From: a virus
Taxonomy: Duplodnaviria; Caudoviricetes
Strand: one strand, 5' to 3'
IMG/VR virus record: IMGVR_UViG_3300031775_000001
Coordinates: 1-64,000 of that record
DNA length: 64,000 bases
Shown one piece after another: positions 40,401-63,084 of the stretch (the stretch's first letter is position 1; each line of letters starts with the position of its first letter). A model generated the notes under the pieces. It searched no databases. It was not told where the DNA came from and was given only the letters and a program-made list of their open reading frames with translations. Position numbers and translations under genes: made by a program.

Positions 40401-40569
40401 GTTTCGTTCTCCCTCCTTATTTGAAGGAGTGGAAACCCATTACTGGCAATGGATTGCCTCTCAATTAGTTTCGCTCCCCTTCGTATTTGAAGGAGTGGAA
40501 ACCAGAGGAGTACTGCATCAGCATTTCCTATGCGTTTCGCTCCCCTTCGTATTTGAAGGAGTGGAAACC
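40401..40569 (-). CRISPR. CRISPR mini-array: 3 repeats (36 nt; distal one degenerate, 37 nt) and 2 spacers of 30 nt
   Basis: Repeats at 40534-40569 and 40468-40503 are identical (minus: GGTTTCCACTCCTTCAAATACGAAGGGGAGCGAAAC); 40401-40437 is degenerate. The repeat is palindromic and ends in GAAAC. Confidence 0.9.
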
Positions 40570-40675
40570 CGAAGCTCCTAACCCCTTAATATGAAAGGAG
40601 ATGCCCCTCGATAAAATCTAAGGGCTTTTAGTTCCCCACCGAACATGGAAGAACATCAAACTGTAAAAGAACAAA
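40570..40675 (-). ncRNA. structured leader / tracr- or omegaRNA-like scaffold
   Basis: boxA-like start, two to three hairpins, and an anti-repeat-like AAGGGGT-TA-GGAG joined to repeat 1 by a cUUCGg loop. Confidence 0.65.
40658..40673 (-). promoter_or_regulatory. boxA-like antitermination element upstream of the array
   Basis: TGTTCTTTTACAGTTT begins 2-3 nt after the tnpB stop. Confidence 0.55.
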
Positions 40676-41887
40676 TTAGCCAAATGCCCTCTGGCGTACA
40701 ACCTCGGCGGCATTAGGGTCTCGAAAAAGATGAGTGCCACATTCCGGGCAATCCCATTCCCTTTCGTCTAGAGTGAGGTTTCTATTAATGAAACCACAAC
40801 AAGAACAAGTCATAGAGGTATATTTAGGATCAACCATCTTACAGGTTTTTCCCTCAAGCTCTGATTTATATTGAATTTGTGAAATAATTTCTGCCAGCCC
40901 ACCGCCGACAAGTTTTTTGTTTGTGGCTTTCTTCACTCGCCTTAATGTTTTCTTATCTTCCTCTGTCTTTTCTACTATTTTCTTAACTTCAAAATCTTCA
41001 ACGGCGATGCCATCATTTTCGGAAACTATCTGACGGCTAATGGCATGTCTTGCATGTTTTTTCTTATTTGCTTCATAATGTTTTAGCCTTGCAATCTTAG
41101 ACTTTATTTTTCTAAAATTCTTTGACCCCTTTTTGCAAAGAGCCAATTTCTGATTAAGTCTAGCCTGACGAGCTTCAACATCTTTATAGGTCGGAATATG
41201 GAACGTATTGCCCTTATTGTCCGTAACATGATCCTTAATTCCAAAATCTAAACCGATTGTTTTTTTAATTTTAACCTTCTTCTGTATGGTTTGGGATTCT
41301 CCAACTATACATACATACCATTTTCCGGCTTGATGTTTAATAGTTGCGATTTTGGGCTTTCTTCCATCAAGAGAACGATGCATAATAAGTTTGACCTTAT
41401 GAGGCTTCACTCTGTTTGCAGGGTTAGATAAGAAAATATGGCTTTTCTTCAACTTGTCTTCATTTATTTCTAATTTATATGAATCAGTTTGAAAACTATT
41501 TGCCAACCTCAAAGGTTTAGGTTTCAGTCGAGAACCACCACCCTTGGTAAAGAAATTACCTCTGAGTTGATTAGCAATATGATTTAGATCTCTTGAGGGG
41601 CATTTTCTTAAAAGCTCAATACCCCAATTGTTTCCTTCTTCATCCAAATACCTATCCTCAAATCCTTCACCATAAGTTCTCCATCTCGTTATATTCCTAT
41701 TATAAGCAGTAAAATTAGGCTTTTTTTCTTCCTCATTGTCCGCTTCAGCCAGAAAGATATACTCATTCTTAACTAATTGAGAAGCTCTGCAACAATCATA
41801 TAGATATTCTTCCTGCTCCTTGTTTGGCTTAATTGCGAACTTGAAGGTTTTCAAATTCTTATTGTTTTTCTCTTTGGATTTCATCAA
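40676..41887 (-). CDS. tnpB: TnpB/Cas12f-like RNA-guided RuvC nuclease (403 aa), CRISPR-associated
   Basis: N-terminal TFKFAIKPNKEQ (OrfB HTH), RuvC-I IGLDFG, RuvC-II IAVEDF, Zn finger TSMTCSCCG...WDCPECG, RuvC-III RDPNAA. Confidence 0.93.
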   Translation of the reverse strand: MMKSKEKNNKNLKTFKFAIKPNKEQEEYLYDCCRASQLVKNEYIFLAEADNEEEKKPNFTAYNRNITRWRTYGEGFEDRYLDEEGNNWGIELLRKCPSRDLNHIANQLRGNFFTKGGGSRLKPKPLRLANSFQTDSYKLEINEDKLKKSHIFLSNPANRVKPHKVKLIMHRSLDGRKPKIATIKHQAGKWYVCIVGESQTIQKKVKIKKTIGLDFGIKDHVTDNKGNTFHIPTYKDVEARQARLNQKLALCKKGSKNFRKIKSKIARLKHYEANKKKHARHAISRQIVSENDGIAVEDFEVKKIVEKTEEDKKTLRRVKKATNKKLVGGGLAEIISQIQYKSELEGKTCKMVDPKYTSMTCSCCGFINRNLTLDEREWDCPECGTHLFRDPNAAEVVRQRAFG

Positions 41888-41894
41888 AGAACTC

Positions 41895-41992
41895 TAGTTT
41901 CGTTCTTAAGACCACATGTCGTTGTTTCGTTCATTTGGTATAGATGCCTATTTGAATTAAGCTTTGACTTCCCCTCCGAACAAGGAAGAAGC
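41895..41992 (-). repeat. second copy of the CRISPR leader scaffold upstream of tnpB
   Basis: 41961-41990 vs 40624-40653 is 26/30 identical; shared GGCATCT; two GAACGAAAC repeat-end motifs at 41897-41905 and 41924-41932. Confidence 0.7.
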
Positions 41993-42554
41993 AAGGGTAA
42001 ACCTTGATTTTGAAAAAAAATCATTCTTGAGGACTCCAATAAATCCCCTTAAATAAAACCAATTTAACATTGTCGCCATCGTCCACATCAATCCCTATAA
42101 GCTCACCCTCTGGAACGACAGATTTTGTGCTTTCATAAAAGAACTCCTTGGATTCAGAAGCATAGACTACTTGATCTGAGTGATATGGTAGCTTATCGAA
42201 GAAATCCGGATTATCCTTTTCCCATTTCTTAAAGTTTTCATATTGACTCGCTTTAGAAGGAAAATAACTACCGGACTCTAATTTGCCCACAGTCTTTTTT
42301 TGTTGTTTGCTCATTTTATTTAAAAATCTATGGATTCGGAAAAAGAAGTTCTAATGTCATTCACTAATTGAGACCGAGAATCACCCAAGGAACATTCGTC
42401 CCCTTCAATATAAAAAGAACTACATATATCGCTTATAGGGTCACCCCTAGATTCCCACCAATCCGGATTTTCTTCCATTGTTGAGAGCAAGACTTCTTCT
42501 ATAAAACTTGATATTTCTTCTATCCTGCTAAAATTGATTTCTTTATTTGTATCA

Positions 42555-44046: not shown

Positions 44047-44781
44047 TCATTCCGGAACGTAATGGTTTTTATTTAAATTTATTTCTTTCGGAAGTCGGGA
44101 AGTTTTTTTTATTTGTTTTATTCTGCATTTGTCTGCCTTATTGAAAATCCCGGCCAAATATTTAGCCGACTCATTTGCTTCTGAAATATCATTTTTATTC
44201 TCATCCTCAACTGTCATGCCTTTATAATGATGTCTTAATTTTTCAAAAATTCTAATTTTGCAGATATTAACTGCTTGTCTAGTTATTGAATGTTTGGTTG
44301 CTATTTCTTTTTCGCTCTTACCTTTTAACATCATTCCAAAGGTATCCTTTTCAATTTCCGTCAATATATGAGAATATTTTTTAATAATATCAACAATAAC
44401 CTTCAGTTTTGCACCTTCATCAAAGAATGCAACATCTTCCTCTACTCCTATTTGATCGCATATCCAATCAAACAAAGAAACTTGCCCATCATCAGTTTCA
44501 TATGTCCCGTCAGCAAGATTTTTAGAATAATGAAATTCTTTTATGCCCTGCCAGTTCGTTACATTCCTTGCATACGCATATGCCCATTTAGTGAAGTCTG
44601 CCTTAGAGAAATCATAGCCTAATTTATCAAAAAACTTTTGTTTCGTTTTTATTAAATTAAAATTAACTTGACCTACCATATCATCAACGGTAGAACTCGC
44701 ATTTTGGGAAATATGCTTTCCTACTATTTTCCTAAGGTCTTCCTGATACTCTACTAAAAAATCATCAAATCTAGATTTCAT
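44047..44781 (-). CDS. ECF-like RNA polymerase sigma factor (sigma2 + sigma4)
   Basis: VDDMVGQVNFNL...FTKWAYAYARN (region 2); LTEIEKDTFGMMLKGKSEKEIATKHSITRQAVNICKIRIFEKLR (region 4). Confidence 0.8.
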   Translation of the reverse strand: MKSRFDDFLVEYQEDLRKIVGKHISQNASSTVDDMVGQVNFNLIKTKQKFFDKLGYDFSKADFTKWAYAYARNVTNWQGIKEFHYSKNLADGTYETDDGQVSLFDWICDQIGVEEDVAFFDEGAKLKVIVDIIKKYSHILTEIEKDTFGMMLKGKSEKEIATKHSITRQAVNICKIRIFEKLRHHYKGMTVEDENKNDISEANESAKYLAGIFNKADKCRIKQIKKTSRLPKEINLNKNHYVPE

Positions 44782-46000
44782 TTTCTTTTATAAATTTAAA
44801 TAACCTAACGTAATTGGAAATTGGCATATTAAGATACTTCGCCGCCTGTAGGGCGACTTTATTATTTTGATGATAGGCTTCCAATATTGAGCTTTTCATC
44901 TCTTTTGCATATTTAATTCTATTTCTTTTCCTCGCAGACAACCTATTGGCGAGCCTAATCTCATCAACACTATCCAAAAAATCTCTTTTAAAATCAGGAT
45001 AAGCCCTACCCATTTGATTCATTGTTCTTCTTAGGGTGTTTACCGCCAATCCGAATTCTTTTGCAACAGATTTTAATAAGTGATTATTCCTTTTTAAGCT
45101 TTCCTCTAATTTAGGTTTTAGCTTCTCCAGCCTTAAAGAAAGCCTTATTTTGTTATTCTTTTTTCGAGTTTCTAGCATCTTCTTTCTAACTTCGGGGTCT
45201 TTTAGGTTGGACGGAATTAAGTTCCCATTCTTTTTCCTTGTCTCCAAGGCTTTAATCTTCCCCATCTCTAATTTCTCCGGATCATAAACAGGGTCTCTAG
45301 CGGGAGGATTTGGGTATCTTTTTTTCCAATTAATTCCTTCAAAAAAAATCATCCTGTTCATCAAGGATCTATGACTAATGCGAAGTATATCTTTCGCGTG
45401 ATTAACATTTCCTTTGGTTCCATCCATTACAAAGAGTATTGATTCTAATTCTTTTTCTGCGACCTCAGAATCATTATAGTTCGTCCTCCCTCTCTTGTCC
45501 GAATGGGATTTCCCGTATTTGCTTAAAGCGGAAAACCAATTTTTTGTTTTATTTTTGTTGTGTTCTCTTCCGGCTTCTATGAAAATCCTTATCTCTTCAT
45601 CGCTTTTTTTATAATTTTTGGGGGGAGACCAATTTCTTCGACCTACCTGACCTTCAAACCTCTTTTTTTCGATTTTAAAGAGCTTATCAAATTCATTGGG
45701 GAACGCCGTACTTCTTACCGCATCCCAGAACGCAATTCTACTTGAGCCTACAGAATTTTTTCCATATTCTTTATGTAGGATGTATATATGAGACGCTTTC
45801 CTTTTTGAGAAATTTTTATTTTCTGAAAGTTTTAAATCTAATATATTAAGAGCTAATTTAGCTGATTTAGCCTTAAGAAAAACTTTAAAATCTCTTTCGC
45901 TTTTATCTTTATAACATTCAGTATAATGAAGCACCCAATATTGATTATGAGCAAATTTCTTCCTAAACGATCTAAACTGAATATTTTTTCCTTTTCTCAT
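44771..46000 (-). CDS. basic protein with three Fis-type HTH motifs (409 aa), paralog of 45997..47214
   Basis: GNVNHAKDILRISHRSL, LKSVAKEFGLAVNTLRR and ALQAAKYLNMPISNY helices. Confidence 0.7.
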   Translation of the reverse strand: MRKGKNIQFRSFRKKFAHNQYWVLHYTECYKDKSERDFKVFLKAKSAKLALNILDLKLSENKNFSKRKASHIYILHKEYGKNSVGSSRIAFWDAVRSTAFPNEFDKLFKIEKKRFEGQVGRRNWSPPKNYKKSDEEIRIFIEAGREHNKNKTKNWFSALSKYGKSHSDKRGRTNYNDSEVAEKELESILFVMDGTKGNVNHAKDILRISHRSLMNRMIFFEGINWKKRYPNPPARDPVYDPEKLEMGKIKALETRKKNGNLIPSNLKDPEVRKKMLETRKKNNKIRLSLRLEKLKPKLEESLKRNNHLLKSVAKEFGLAVNTLRRTMNQMGRAYPDFKRDFLDSVDEIRLANRLSARKRNRIKYAKEMKSSILEAYHQNNKVALQAAKYLNMPISNYVRLFKFIKENEI

Positions 46001-47214
46001 TGAAGCCCCTCCCTAATGTCTTTAACGAAATTGCGAAAAGTACCTGGGCTCATGCCTAAATACTTAGAAGCTTGGCGAGAATTTCCGTCAAATTGATGAT
46101 AAGCCTCAAGGATATTATGCTTGCAGGAATTCAATTGATGCTCCCTCCTCTTTTTTTTGGCAAAAGAATGATTTTCATTTCTTTTTTTATCCTTCACTTC
46201 GTCAAATTCTTTTTTAAAATTGGGGTAGAAAATCTTTAAGTCTCTGATTACATTAGAAACCCATGCGACACTCATGCCCAACTCCTCGCTTGTCCTGATT
46301 TGATGAAAATTATTTTTTCTTAGAGCATCCAAAAAAGGAGTTTTTATCTTTTTTAAATTTTCCTCTTTCTTTTTTCTCCATGTCTTTGCTCTTGTTTTTT
46401 TAGCTTTATTCAATACCTCTTCTTTGTTCTTGAAATTAAAAAACTTATGCCCACGAGACTTAAGTGTTTTGACCGCCTCTATATGACCGATCCTTTGGGC
46501 TTCAGTATTCTTTTTTCTCTCTCTGGTTCCGGTTAAAGGATATTCTTTATTCCAATCAACTCCGTCAAACTTTTGCAAATAACGCCTGAAGGCAGATGAA
46601 CCAATGCCTAACTCGTCACCGCAAGCACTTTTATTCCCCTTGTTTTTTTTCATTAACCCTTTAAGGAATTTAGTTTCCATTCCTTTGAAGGTAAGATCCT
46701 TTAAAGAAACATAAGAATTTTCTCCAAATCGTTTTTTTGCTTCTGGGCTTTTGGGCAAAACACAACCTCTCTTTTTGTCAGAAAACTTTTTTAATCTGGC
46801 AATTCTCTCATTATTTAATTCTTTGGAAGGGCGCTGTTCCCCCCTTCCCATTGGATGCAAATAACTATATTTCTTATCTTTTTTAAGTTTGAATATTTTA
46901 TTAAATTCATTTGGGAAGCTTATCTTCCTTATGTGATCCCAAGTCGAAATAGAGGAACTTAATTTAACCCCGGAAAATCGACTAAATCCCTTATGAAAAA
47001 AATAAAATAATATTGAGATTAACTTGATATTCTCATTCTCTTCTGAGATTCTTTTTAGCAGAATTTCTTTAGCCATCTCCCCGGACCTAGCCTTAATGAC
47101 AGTTCGGTAATTCCCTAATAATTTCCCACCGAGCATTTCCGAAAAATGCACAACCCAATATTGGTTGCTAGAAAATTTCTTAAATCTATATTTGTTTTGA
47201 ATGTTGGATTTCAT
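45997..47214 (-). CDS. basic protein with three Fis-type HTH motifs (405 aa)
   Basis: KNKGNKSACGDELGIGSSAFRRYL, HQIRTSEELGMSVAWV and DGNSRQASKYLGMSPGTF. Confidence 0.7.
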   Translation of the reverse strand: MKSNIQNKYRFKKFSSNQYWVVHFSEMLGGKLLGNYRTVIKARSGEMAKEILLKRISEENENIKLISILFYFFHKGFSRFSGVKLSSSISTWDHIRKISFPNEFNKIFKLKKDKKYSYLHPMGRGEQRPSKELNNERIARLKKFSDKKRGCVLPKSPEAKKRFGENSYVSLKDLTFKGMETKFLKGLMKKNKGNKSACGDELGIGSSAFRRYLQKFDGVDWNKEYPLTGTRERKKNTEAQRIGHIEAVKTLKSRGHKFFNFKNKEEVLNKAKKTRAKTWRKKKEENLKKIKTPFLDALRKNNFHQIRTSEELGMSVAWVSNVIRDLKIFYPNFKKEFDEVKDKKRNENHSFAKKKRREHQLNSCKHNILEAYHQFDGNSRQASKYLGMSPGTFRNFVKDIREGLQ

Positions 47215-60513: not shown

Positions 60514-60520
60514 ATTACAC
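60514..60520 (-). promoter_or_regulatory. candidate phage-sigma promoter motif GTGTAAT
   Basis: 5-8 nt before the clpC start codons; overlaps the dnaE stop. Confidence 0.35.
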
Positions 60521-63084
60521 TATTTTATATCTGATAATTTCATATAGATTTTTTCGTCCACAATAGAAAGCTTATCCAAGAACAAAATATCATCTCCTTT
60601 TTGCCCAGTAATGATCACTATATTATCCTTTTTAGGGATCTTCCCCCCATTATTTGTATATTTAGATAAAGCTTTTTCTCTGTTATCCATCATCATTGCA
60701 TCATAAGTACCATACTCATCCGATATGGTCATCTTGATATAGGGTATATCTTTTTTGCTTTTCCTCTTGATGCAGTCCTCTATGACTCCAATGAATTTTC
60801 CCCTTTCTTTTAACTCTAAACCGAAAAAATGAATAGAATTATTTAGGCTTTCATTTTCACCAAACGAATCTTTTAGCTCGGTGCTATGACTAAATCCTAA
60901 AAGCTTTCTTTCGAAATACCAATTAGCAAATTTTTCATAACTTTTATTCCTGTCATAAATTTCTTTATAAGGGTAATATTTCTTTTTAAATGTTTCAAGC
61001 CTGCCCTCTGAGAAGATTACTCTCCCGTCATCAGCAATTAATGATTCTTTTATACATCCATTGATAGTATTTAAGCAATCATACTCAAATCTTTCTCCGA
61101 GTTCTATAAAGTTTCTTTTCTCTCTGTCTGTTAATATATTGAAAGATTGAGCCTCTAGAACCAGTCTAGATCTTTTTGATTTAAAATCAGATAATGCTCC
61201 AGCCTGTATTAGGGAAGAAAGGATTCCTATGTTAAGCCCTGCTTGTTTGGCAGAAATGAAAATTTCATATTTATTTGTGTTCTCAGAATTTCTAAATGAA
61301 CGGAGGGCGTTTAATGACTTCTCGCTAATCCCCTTGACGCTGTTAAGGCCAAACCTTATGTTTTTATTGTCAAGAGAAAAGCCCATTTCTGATTGGATCA
61401 AGTCAGGAGGCAAGAGGGTTATATCAAAAAAGGAAAGCTCTTGGCTAATCTTATTGATTTCCTCTTGAGGAGAAGGTTCAAACTGAGTCATTTCCAGAAG
61501 AGACAAAAAGAACTCTTTTGGATGATTGAACTTTAGGTAAGTAGTCCATGCCGCGAGAATGGAGTAGCAAATCGAATGAGATTTATTAAAAGAATAATTA
61601 GCACTATCTTCGGCAACCTTCCATAAAATAGAACCAATATTTTCATCTAGCCCCAAATCTTTTATTTTGTTCTCTATTTTTTCTTTCCACTCTGGCATCT
61701 GAGCCACTTTCTTTTTCCCAACGATTCTCCTCAATTGCTCTGCTTCATCCAGAGTAAAGCCAACCTTTACGGCCATCTTCATCAATTGCTCTTGATACAA
61801 AGGTATGCCTCCTGTATAGCTAAGGACATCATCGAAAAAACTATGAACACTTTGGAAAGCTCCTGAAGATACATATCTTTCATAGTAATCCATGAATTCT
61901 ATAGCCCCTGGCCTCGCTATAGCAACCACAGCACTTAACTGGTCTAGATTTCTGGGTTTAATCTTTTTGCACACTCTAAAATCTGTATCCGCTTCAATCT
62001 GGAAAATTCCATGACGACTTTTTAAATTTTGCAATGGTTTATAAAGAGAATCCTTTGATAAATCAACATCATAAATATCCATTCCTACATACTTGCATGT
62101 ATTATAAATGACGCTTAAGGTTCTCAGCCCTAGAATATCGAACTTAACCATTAGCTCTGCGACCCAATTCATGTCATAGCCAGTGACTAAAGCCCCTTCT
62201 GATGTCTTTTGGACCGGGCAAATATCTGAAAGTTTTTCGAAGGATATGGCTATTCCAGAGGGATGCACTCCCACATTTTTATTTAACCCCTGAAGTTTTA
62301 AGGCTATTTTGTAAACTTTTTCATTAGAATCAGCCCACGATCTAAATTTTTCACTTTCTTCATAAGCCTCTGGCAAGGGAACTACTAACCCAAATTTCTT
62401 TGGGATACTGTCGCTTATTTCATTTACTTCTTGTTCGCTCATCCCCCCTACGAGTTTACCGCACTCTTTTGCGCATAATTTACCACTAAGAGTCGTAAGG
62501 GTTAATATCTTTGAGGTTCTGCCCGGATATTTAGACTCAATATATTCGATAACCTTATACCGATGTTCATAAGCAATATCATTGTCGACATCAGCCAAGA
62601 GGCTACCATCTAAATAAGAAATCCCATCTTTTTCTACTGTTTTTGCCCGGCTTTTAGATACAAACCTCTCGAAAAATAACTCGTATTTTATTGGATCTAC
62701 CTGTGTTACTCCTATCAGGAACAAAACAAGCGACCCAGCCGCCGAACCCCTCCCCGGGCCAGCAGGAATGCCTTCCTCCCTGCAGAAATTAAGAACATCC
62801 CAATTAAGAAGAATATAATCAATAAAACCCAGATCGGAAAGAATTGATAACTCCATGTCGAGCCTGTCAGTATACTCCTGCTTGTTGTGCTTCTCGTTGA
62901 TTTCATATTTATTTTCTCCAGATACGCATAGAGCCTTAAGGAAGTCCAAATTAGAAACTTCATTGGAAATACCAAGTCTTTTGTAATGCCTCTGCTCTAT
63001 GACGATCTTAGGCAATCTAACTCCCGGTGGGGAGCATCCTTCATAAGAAGAAAAGTTATTATAAAAAGAGTTTTTTGTCATCAA
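60520..63084 (-). CDS. dnaE: DNA polymerase III alpha subunit (family C) lacking the PHP domain (854 aa)
   Basis: GPGRGSAAGSL, LFFERF, ADVDND, HPSGI, KFDILGL, YSFNKSH, IRFGL..VKGI and C-terminal OB fold. Confidence 0.95.
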   Translation of the reverse strand: MMTKNSFYNNFSSYEGCSPPGVRLPKIVIEQRHYKRLGISNEVSNLDFLKALCVSGENKYEINEKHNKQEYTDRLDMELSILSDLGFIDYILLNWDVLNFCREEGIPAGPGRGSAAGSLVLFLIGVTQVDPIKYELFFERFVSKSRAKTVEKDGISYLDGSLLADVDNDIAYEHRYKVIEYIESKYPGRTSKILTLTTLSGKLCAKECGKLVGGMSEQEVNEISDSIPKKFGLVVPLPEAYEESEKFRSWADSNEKVYKIALKLQGLNKNVGVHPSGIAISFEKLSDICPVQKTSEGALVTGYDMNWVAELMVKFDILGLRTLSVIYNTCKYVGMDIYDVDLSKDSLYKPLQNLKSRHGIFQIEADTDFRVCKKIKPRNLDQLSAVVAIARPGAIEFMDYYERYVSSGAFQSVHSFFDDVLSYTGGIPLYQEQLMKMAVKVGFTLDEAEQLRRIVGKKKVAQMPEWKEKIENKIKDLGLDENIGSILWKVAEDSANYSFNKSHSICYSILAAWTTYLKFNHPKEFFLSLLEMTQFEPSPQEEINKISQELSFFDITLLPPDLIQSEMGFSLDNKNIRFGLNSVKGISEKSLNALRSFRNSENTNKYEIFISAKQAGLNIGILSSLIQAGALSDFKSKRSRLVLEAQSFNILTDREKRNFIELGERFEYDCLNTINGCIKESLIADDGRVIFSEGRLETFKKKYYPYKEIYDRNKSYEKFANWYFERKLLGFSHSTELKDSFGENESLNNSIHFFGLELKERGKFIGVIEDCIKRKSKKDIPYIKMTISDEYGTYDAMMMDNREKALSKYTNNGGKIPKKDNIVIITGQKGDDILFLDKLSIVDEKIYMKLSDIK

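Follow-up and report, generated by a model that had tools for sequence, protein, structure and literature searches.

We report a short element that precedes the gene of a TnpB-family nuclease in a stretch of viral DNA of 64,000 nucleotides (nt), positions 1 to 64,000 of the IMG/VR record IMGVR_UViG_3300031775_000001 (hereafter the window). The element lies at 41991-41897 on the minus strand, and we consider it probable that it encodes a natural minimal single-guide RNA, similar to an omegaRNA, whose guide is fixed. A shortened copy of the guide-RNA scaffold of the nuclease would here be fused to half a repeat and to one fixed guide; the parts follow each other in the order scaffold, tail, 18-mer, tail and ATG, on the same strand as the effector gene. 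A full-length scaffold and a CRISPR array lie on the other side of the gene. The features of the locus, from the upstream module through the nuclease gene to the downstream scaffold and array, are given here as read on the minus strand:

41992 to 42006, minus strand: small hairpin CAAGG-TTTAC-CCTTG, immediately 5' of the short scaffold, in place of the leader GTTCTTTnnCAGTTTAA of the full scaffold
41968 to 41991, minus strand: scaffold hairpin 1, with nine pairs, one bulged T and the loop GTTCG; both copies have the same fold
41946 to 41962, minus strand: shortened stem 2 (GCTTA, loop ATTCAAA, TAGGC)
41933 to 41945, minus strand: ATCT and a 9-nt linker, standing for about 65 nt of the full scaffold
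41924 to 41932, minus strand: first truncated repeat, the tail GAACGAAAC, fused to the scaffold as the guide-adjacent handle and the same as the 3' end of the third, degenerate repeat of the array
41906 to 41923, minus strand: fixed 18-nt guide AACGACATGTGGTCTTAA, identical in the window and in the related loci L002, L003 and L020
41897 to 41905, minus strand: second truncated repeat, again the tail GAACGAAAC, which has the form GAGCGAAAC in the related locus L001
41885 to 41896, minus strand: TAGAGTTCTTTG, the 12 nt preceding the ATG (41884)
40676 to 41884, minus strand: TnpB-family RNA-guided nuclease of 402 amino acids with intact RuvC triad and zinc finger (NF040570, 1.3e-53)
40569 to 40675, minus strand: full-length scaffold with leader, hairpin 1, stem 2, repeat-like stem 3 and anti-repeat, adjoining repeat 1
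40401 to 40568, minus strand: CRISPR array in which two 31-nt spacers separate three repeats of 35-36 nt, the last of them degenerate

The two scaffold copies are related by descent rather than by accident. An earlier note on this DNA had reported that 30 nt of the upstream copy match the downstream copy at 26 positions, and we find the same 26/30 agreement between 41990-41961 and 40653-40624. The two compensatory changes it had described are also present: an A-T pair has become T-A within the stem, and a change of C to G is offset by a change of G to C, the latter at 41991, one base beyond the 30-mer. The fourth difference lies in the single strand after the stem. Equally borne out were the shortened second hairpin with its ATCT (GCTTA/TAGGC at 41962-41946, to be compared with GCCCT/AGGGGC and ATCT downstream), the miniature repeat-spacer-repeat (GAACGAAAC at 41932-41924 and 41905-41897, enclosing AACGACATGTGGTCTTAA at 41923-41906) and the closeness to the start codon, put at about 10 nt, which is 12 nt from the second tail to the ATG. 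Chance is ruled out as the origin of the repeat, because the degenerate 22-nt motif TTCTTCCnTnTTCGnnGGGGAA occurs at exactly two places in 64 kilobases (kb), where 0.15 are expected even with three mismatches allowed, and because a scaffold-head profile search detects the upstream copy with an expect value (E) of 3.8e-7. The tail GAACGAAAC has four copies in the window against 0.52 expected, the third being the tail of the degenerate third repeat.

The full scaffold is 107 nt long, begins right after the nuclease stop codon and folds better than shuffled sequence (z = -2.1), and a duplex of 7 base pairs (bp) between anti-repeat and repeat can be read in its sequence. The short module is without the leader, the repeat-like stem 3 and this duplex; the leader GTTCTTTnnCAGTTTAA is not found in short scaffold copies, and the roughly 65 nt that have been replaced comprise the repeat-like stem 3, the anti-repeat and most of repeat 1. 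The short module measures 67 nt from hairpin 1 to the tail, the same as a short module in the more distant locus L004 (2831-2897). The downstream array (40401-40568) has the full-length regular repeats and variable spacers of a CRISPR array, which the upstream unit, with two 9-nt tails and one invariant 18-nt spacer, does not.

To follow the element through related phages, we drew homologues of the nuclease from a collection of 5.8 billion proteins, together with their contigs, and added loci from a metagenome scan. The alignment of homologous loci that the earlier note had suggested finds the short copy kept in L001, L002, L003 and L020, and no upstream module in L004. In the three closest relatives (L002, L003 and L020, 96-97% amino-acid identity) the upstream intergenic region of 136 nt is identical to that of the window at 136/136 positions, whereas the nuclease genes of L002 and L020 differ from the window's at 29 and 47 codons, respectively. 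Between the window and L001 (88% amino-acid identity) identity is 60% at four-fold degenerate sites and 85% over the gene, compared with ~93% for the short module and 96% for the downstream scaffold. The L001 guide has the same first 17 nt as the window 18-mer; stem 2 has gained a G-C pair in place of a G-U pair (GCCTA/TAGGC), and the CAAGG/CCTTG stem is kept despite an insertion and a change in its loop. L001 also carries an insertion of ~41 nt between the second tail and the start codon, and single-base indels that break every reading frame over the module.

The downstream side of the locus behaves differently. L020 has an array of six repeats that shares 0 spacers with the window, and its upstream module is identical; L002 and L003 have an intact nuclease gene without the downstream scaffold and array, so that the upstream module alone remains, and neither the window nor L020 nor L001 contains a match to the sequence 3' of their gene. 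The upstream module is therefore under purifying selection, and its guide stays the same as the array changes. The natural variant L002/L003 has the upstream module as the sole guide source left at the locus, and we regard the module as neither a chance repeat nor a decaying remnant. In both L002 (2091-2266) and L003, which are two independent assemblies, the nuclease gene is followed by unrelated sequence with an open reading frame (ORF) on the opposite strand.

A further line of evidence comes from the relationship between the hairpin loop and the repeat. Hairpin 1 has the same fold in 17/17 distinct modules examined, and its loop complements the cognate repeat's 3' tail (GTTnnn against nnnAAAC, with one extra A in the tail). 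Loop and tail covary across five module types within these 17 modules: the window pairs GTTCG with CGAAAC, and the other pairs are GTTCGC with GCGAAAC, GTTTAG with CTAAAAC, GTTGAGT with ACTCAAAC, GTTTGCTA with TAGCAAAAC, and ATTCG with tails ending in AAAT (CGAAAT). In the structure of ISDra2 TnpB, the bases immediately 5' of the guide are paired to a 5'-proximal scaffold segment in a pseudoknot, and a guide-adjacent pseudoknot was found to be conserved in all Cas12 guide RNAs (PMC10097598). The loop-tail pairing, which we recognise by complementarity and covariation, is a candidate for the same guide-adjacent pseudoknot, and the short module keeps both partners. The 9-nt tails are plausible minimal handles, because both pseudoknot partners are kept and the duplex is lost.

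Two observations touch on this pairing. In L012 (1839-2438 and 3862-4103) and L013 (1-394 and 1806-2131) one nuclease gene lies between two modules with different repeats, each matching its own hairpin loop (GCGAAAC with GTTCGC, and CTAAAAC with GTTTAG), and a single effector may here accept two dialects of scaffold and repeat. The sequence tail-(T)AGAGTTC(G)TTTG follows a repeat tail in three divergent loci (window 41885-41900, L024 1667-1699 and L004 2926-2945); its GTTCG mimics the loop of hairpin 1 and could pair in cis with the preceding tail. In the window this corresponds to TAGAGTTCTTTG, whose GTTC is able to pair with the tail before it just as the hairpin loop does, and which is probably what is left of an ancestral spacer; outside the window clade, AAACTAGAGTTC is seen again only where a 30-nt spacer of L024 begins, and the counterpart in L004 reads tail-AGAGTTCG.

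Modules on both sides of the gene are widespread in the family. Among relatives of ~35% identity whose contigs contain both flanks (L007-L012, L024-L026 and L028), scaffold heads are detected by the profile both before and after the gene; an upstream scaffold head is also present in L032 and L035, whose downstream flank falls outside the contig, and the upstream head of L013 is cut by the contig end. The upstream modules of these ~35% relatives consist of a complete scaffold and an array that can reach seven repeats, and a sigma-70-type promoter stands between the upstream array and the gene in L012, L024, L025 and L026. Each side of the L007 gene has two module types, the gene-proximal upstream one being leaderless, with degenerate repeats and short spacers, and this module is invariant in five contigs with differing downstream arrays. 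Between L007 and L008 the upstream side is likewise invariant whereas the scaffold-proximal downstream spacers differ. These two contigs encode identical proteins, and comparison of L007 4110-4241 with L008 4110-4175, and of L007 4566-4697, reveals a duplicated spacer unit and two differing scaffold-proximal spacers, which fits polarised gain or loss beside the scaffold.

In L004, a 51% relative, the downstream array is followed by a second full scaffold with a guide and then by a short scaffold with the order hairpin, AAAGCTT, short stem, GCATCT, linker, tail, guide, tail and AGAGTTC; this short module is not placed before a nuclease gene. Tandem scaffold copies thus number three downstream in L004 and two in L023, and they are paired on each side in L007. 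The guide of the L004 short module starts with GTTGACTCTTAATCAA, and the same sequence recurs as a 19-nt array spacer in L006, L022 and L027, where it and another spacer of 18 nt are conserved and the adjacent 30-nt spacers differ; in L022 and L027 such short fixed guides (18-19 nt) stand between variable 30-nt spacers. Short fixed guides beside variable long spacers are thus a property of the family, of which the window element is the clearest and most reduced case.

From these comparisons we propose the following mechanism. The short module would be the reduced counterpart of the full scaffold-and-array modules upstream of the gene in distant relatives, and the parts it keeps (hairpin 1, short stem 2, the ATCT junction and the repeat tail) are those that the family comparison marks as presumably essential. 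No promoter-like site was found between the module and the ATG, and the module therefore probably shares one transcript with the nuclease message. A short RNA would be made from this transcript and released by processing, which could possibly couple the expression of module and nuclease. The processed RNA would load the nuclease with the invariant 18-nt guide, aimed at a conserved target outside the window, possibly in the host or elsewhere in the phage, that the nuclease may cut or bind, and the downstream array would supply changeable guides of 31 nt. Contigs of four RNA-labelled libraries cover parts of the locus, giving neither RNA ends nor strand; one spans the 3' end of the gene, the scaffold and the first repeat of an L020-type array, and a contig of 574 nt, whose library type is uncertain, spans the upstream ORF, the short module and the start of the gene. 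These contigs are compatible with transcription.

Several results weigh against a minimal guide RNA. The fold energy of the short module alone is no better than that of shuffled sequences (z = -0.3 to -0.8), and because these energies are unremarkable the support for its structure comes from covariation and conservation. The loss of the anti-repeat duplex might abolish binding in this nuclease family, no promoter for the module is evident, and the evidence for expression consists of the RNA-library contigs, one of them of uncertain type. The window guide pairs partly with its own linker (ACCAAATG with CATGTGGT), which could mean a structural or regulatory role instead of targeting. A stronger pairing of this kind is seen in the L004 short module (2880-2916), where the linker TTGATTGAGA pairs with guide positions 7-16 over 10 bp, including one G-U; such pairing may form a guide-sequestering hairpin. 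Finally, no target of the 18-mer or of its first 17 nt was found in searches of the window, IMG/VR and representative genomes.

This last point calls for some detail, since a search for targets of the 18-mer had been suggested by the earlier note. The 64-kb window contains no other copy of AACGACATGTGGTCTTAA at up to three mismatches, no complement of it at the same threshold and no seed match. In the 5.5 kb upstream, in which the promoter itself was not located, the longest partial complement is 7 nt, a length equalled by 297/300 shuffles. In IMG/VR a single independent site matches the 17-mer exactly; it lies in an unknown ORF of a phage with 52% G+C, and we judged it to be a chance match. 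In 185,579 representative genomes the 17-mer has five exact matches, two of which are a homologous Sir2/CobB site matched over 18/18 nt in a Crocinitomicaceae and an Aliifodinibius genome. The Crocinitomicaceae genome is marine with 35% G+C, like the phage, and the guide is antisense to its LRPHVV codons. Among 201 genomes of Crocinitomicaceae, 24 have a match with at most two mismatches, the differences falling at wobble positions. The match is not significant in itself, because a reversed control pattern matched these 201 genomes at least as often as the guide did, and it is expected by chance on simple counting; we keep it as a lead only, and an improbable one. The fixed guide of the sister clade matches the same Crocinitomicaceae genome at 17/19 positions in a gene for a type IX secretion substrate (~0.05 expected), and we treated this match as chance as well. 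The array spacers of the window and L020 had no match in IMG/VR, in the Crocinitomicaceae genome or in any fetched locus, and no protospacer from which a target-adjacent motif might be read was found for any array spacer. Matches of the hairpin motif in IMG/VR fell in GC-rich coding regions and were set aside as chance, and no Rfam family matches the scaffold.

One speculative scheme would give the nuclease two modes, in which changeable spacers of 30 nt serve interference and fixed guides of 13-19 nt on minimal scaffolds act against a conserved host or phage gene, the window 18-mer being directed at the host Sir2/CobB deacylase gene for silencing or cutting. We think it improbable that this scheme is correct as a whole. 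If it were, the locus would be a virus-borne, RNA-guided device for host takeover, possibly acting together with the neighbouring sigma-like and helix-turn-helix (HTH) operon.

The main rival to a minimal guide RNA is autoregulation, which we regard as unlikely, though less so than any other alternative. The nuclease, with or without the full scaffold in trans, would bind the scaffold and tails in its own 5' untranslated region (UTR) and so lower its own expression, whether through cleavage or processing of the mRNA leader, through masking of the start region by the second tail, or through guidance to its own promoter in the manner of CreR. The module does lie in the presumed 5' UTR with no promoter-like site before the ATG, three strains show 100% conservation of the second tail and of the 12 nt in front of the ATG, the 574-nt contig from a possible RNA library joins the upstream ORF, module and gene start, and CreR mini-arrays of similar shape repress cas promoters (10.1101/2023.03.10.532045). 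However, guidance to the nuclease's own promoter finds no counterpart in the sequence, as the 18-mer is without a complement in the window and its best partial complement in the 5.5 kb upstream is at chance level. Masking of the start is not conserved, given the ~41 extra nucleotides between second tail and ATG in L001; the L004 short module is not in front of a nuclease gene; and in the 35% clade the upstream array and the gene have a sigma-70-type promoter between them. The earlier note had left the choice between a second short guide RNA and a decoy in the 5' UTR through which the nuclease regulates itself. The former gains from a homologous, selectively kept scaffold copy with its loop, repeat tail and invariant guide and from the full upstream modules of relatives, and the latter loses by the missing complement, the L001 insertion and the position of the L004 module.

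The remaining alternatives account for less of the evidence. The module could be a non-functional relic, the decayed stump of an ancestral upstream scaffold and array kept by linkage to the gene, since, set against the upstream modules that distant relatives carry, it is truncated, its repeats are reduced to 9-nt pieces, and TAGAGTTCTTTG resembles the stump of a spacer that is whole in L024. We find this very improbable in view of conservation far above that of neutral sites and even of coding sequence, changes that are compensatory or turn a wobble into a pair, the same short form kept in a 51% relative (L004), and the survival of this module as the only one in L002 and L003. Ends of IS605-family elements carry subterminal hairpins, and similar bulged hairpins in the same orientation do flank this tnpB-like gene, so that the two copies might be the left and right imperfect palindromes of an IS200/IS605-type element with tnpB. 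Yet both hairpin copies lead into a repeat tail and a guide, tandem copies occur (three in L004, two in L023) as well as pairs on each side in L007, and it is the repeat tail, and not a cleavage site, with which the loop covaries; moreover, the locus has the same neighbours in the window, L020 and L001, and the neighbouring ORFs scanned gave no transposase match. Transposon ends are accordingly a highly improbable explanation. Least credible of all is that the conserved stretch encodes a small protein: an ORF of 51 residues (41884-42039) with a TTG start is open across the module and ends overlapping the ATG, but three single-base indels break its frame in L001, which has no equivalent ORF, and because these indels break all frames the conservation of the module does not come from this ORF.

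The nuclease itself carries the Pfam domain OrfB_IS605 and a Cas12f1-like TNB domain, and its closest solved relatives are ISDra2 TnpB (3.8e-17) and a 540-amino-acid 'transposase'. Residues D213, E296 and D389 and the zinc-finger cysteines C360, C363, C379 and C382 are invariant among 13 homologues. In sequence it is nearer to TnpB than to Cas12f, and no relatives were found in IMG/VR. [quoted passage not shown] Unlike those systems, the locus offers three guide sources (the full scaffold with its array, further repeats needing the scaffold in trans, and the 67-nt scaffold upstream with its fixed guide), and it is without transposon context and without an Rfam match.

For Sigma-TnpB/dCas12f of Bacteroidota it was proposed that the tracrRNA was fused to half a repeat, which re-created an omegaRNA with a fixed guide that was later duplicated (PMC10691335), and RNA-guided transcription was demonstrated for dCas12f-sigmaE (PMC13472631). 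The window locus shares with them a scaffold fused to half a repeat, a fixed non-adaptive guide and tandem duplicated modules. Those systems are also marked by an ECF sigma factor with a C-terminal extension in the operon of the effector; in the window a gene for a GerE-type HTH protein (resembling sigma region 4) and genes for Fis-type HTH proteins lie a few genes upstream. The locus differs in that the nuclease keeps its RuvC residues and zinc finger, whereas those systems are nuclease-dead and lack RuvC-III and the zinc finger; the array has been kept and still changes, the system is found in a virus, the scaffold is much reduced and stands before the gene, and no target upstream of genes was found here. 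CreR mini-arrays and the Cas9 tracr-L likewise consist of a degenerate repeat, a short conserved spacer and a degenerate repeat beside an effector gene (10.1101/2023.03.10.532045; 10.1101/2024.10.29.618823), and the window module resembles them in its degenerate repeat-spacer-repeat next to the effector gene and in its conserved spacer. Unlike in those, the first repeat piece is here fused to a scaffold copy, and the partial promoter match that defines CreR was not found in the 64 kb. The module is outside both the CreR and the Sigma-TnpB families, because each fails a defining test. TranC systems are described as intermediates between TnpB and Cas12 (PMC13565253). With these the window shares a TnpB-sized effector with a CRISPR array and an omegaRNA-like contiguous guide, and LaTranC is among the sequence matches in PDB; the similarity to the solved TranC is nevertheless weak (E=7e-9, C-terminal part only), and we did not find the layout of two flanking modules or the minimal upstream module described for TranC.

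The locus and its relatives display several stages in the split of an omegaRNA into tracrRNA and crRNA and in their re-fusion. A full scaffold with array and a minimal fused guide are both under selection beside an effector of TnpB size that, to judge by its residues, would be an active nuclease. The natural scaffold of 67 nt, combined with the rule of loop and tail, gives a design hint for very small guide RNAs of this nuclease family. Fixed short guides next to changing long spacers suggest that the phage nuclease has a hard-wired task besides interference, and the identity of the target would reveal this task.

All genes of the window are on the minus strand, at ~36% G+C, and they include rIIA, rIIB, a DnaE-type polymerase, clamp-loader-like proteins and a Lon-like protease. 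From this gene content and base composition the source is therefore a large marine phage without close cultured relative. The stretch is present in marine metagenome runs of many studies, and the GenBank phage collection gave no DNA match. The replicative polymerase (60520-63084) is DnaE-like, of the Pol III alpha type, and has at most 33% identity to any phage record, despite the presence of rIIA and rIIB; the phage belongs to a lineage without cultured relative.

Within the array, the first 12 nt of spacer 2 (40437-40467), TAATTGAGAGGC, match the antisense of the nuclease gene at 41771-41785 in 11/12 positions and are preceded there by AAC, as in the repeat tail, with ~0.02 such matches expected in the locus. 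This match is probably due to chance or strain-specific, because the spacer is missing from the sister strain L020. In the 46-51% clade (L004 750-834, L006 240-320 and L022 200-285) the nuclease gene is located after a DHFR gene, and it is preceded by a conserved non-coding element of ~80 nt (GGTATTGCGrCGGCTT...CGCATAAAAGCTGGGGC) that is unrelated to the scaffold and has no Rfam match.

Upstream of the window module, 44047-47214 encodes a GerE-type HTH protein, similar to sigma region 4, and two paralogues of ~405 amino acids, one with a weak match to a Fis-type HTH. The ORF at 44047-44781, five ORFs upstream of the module, has GerE as its sole domain match (7.5e-6). By BLASTP, neither this ORF nor the 186-amino-acid ORF of the window is similar to the ORFs at the same position in L012 and L007. 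Genes with Sigma70_r2, HTH and HNH domains nevertheless lie at a similar distance from the nuclease in distant relatives, the Sigma70_r2 genes having no BLASTP similarity to the window's ORF, and this sigma-like and HTH neighbourhood recalls the sigma association of dCas12f.
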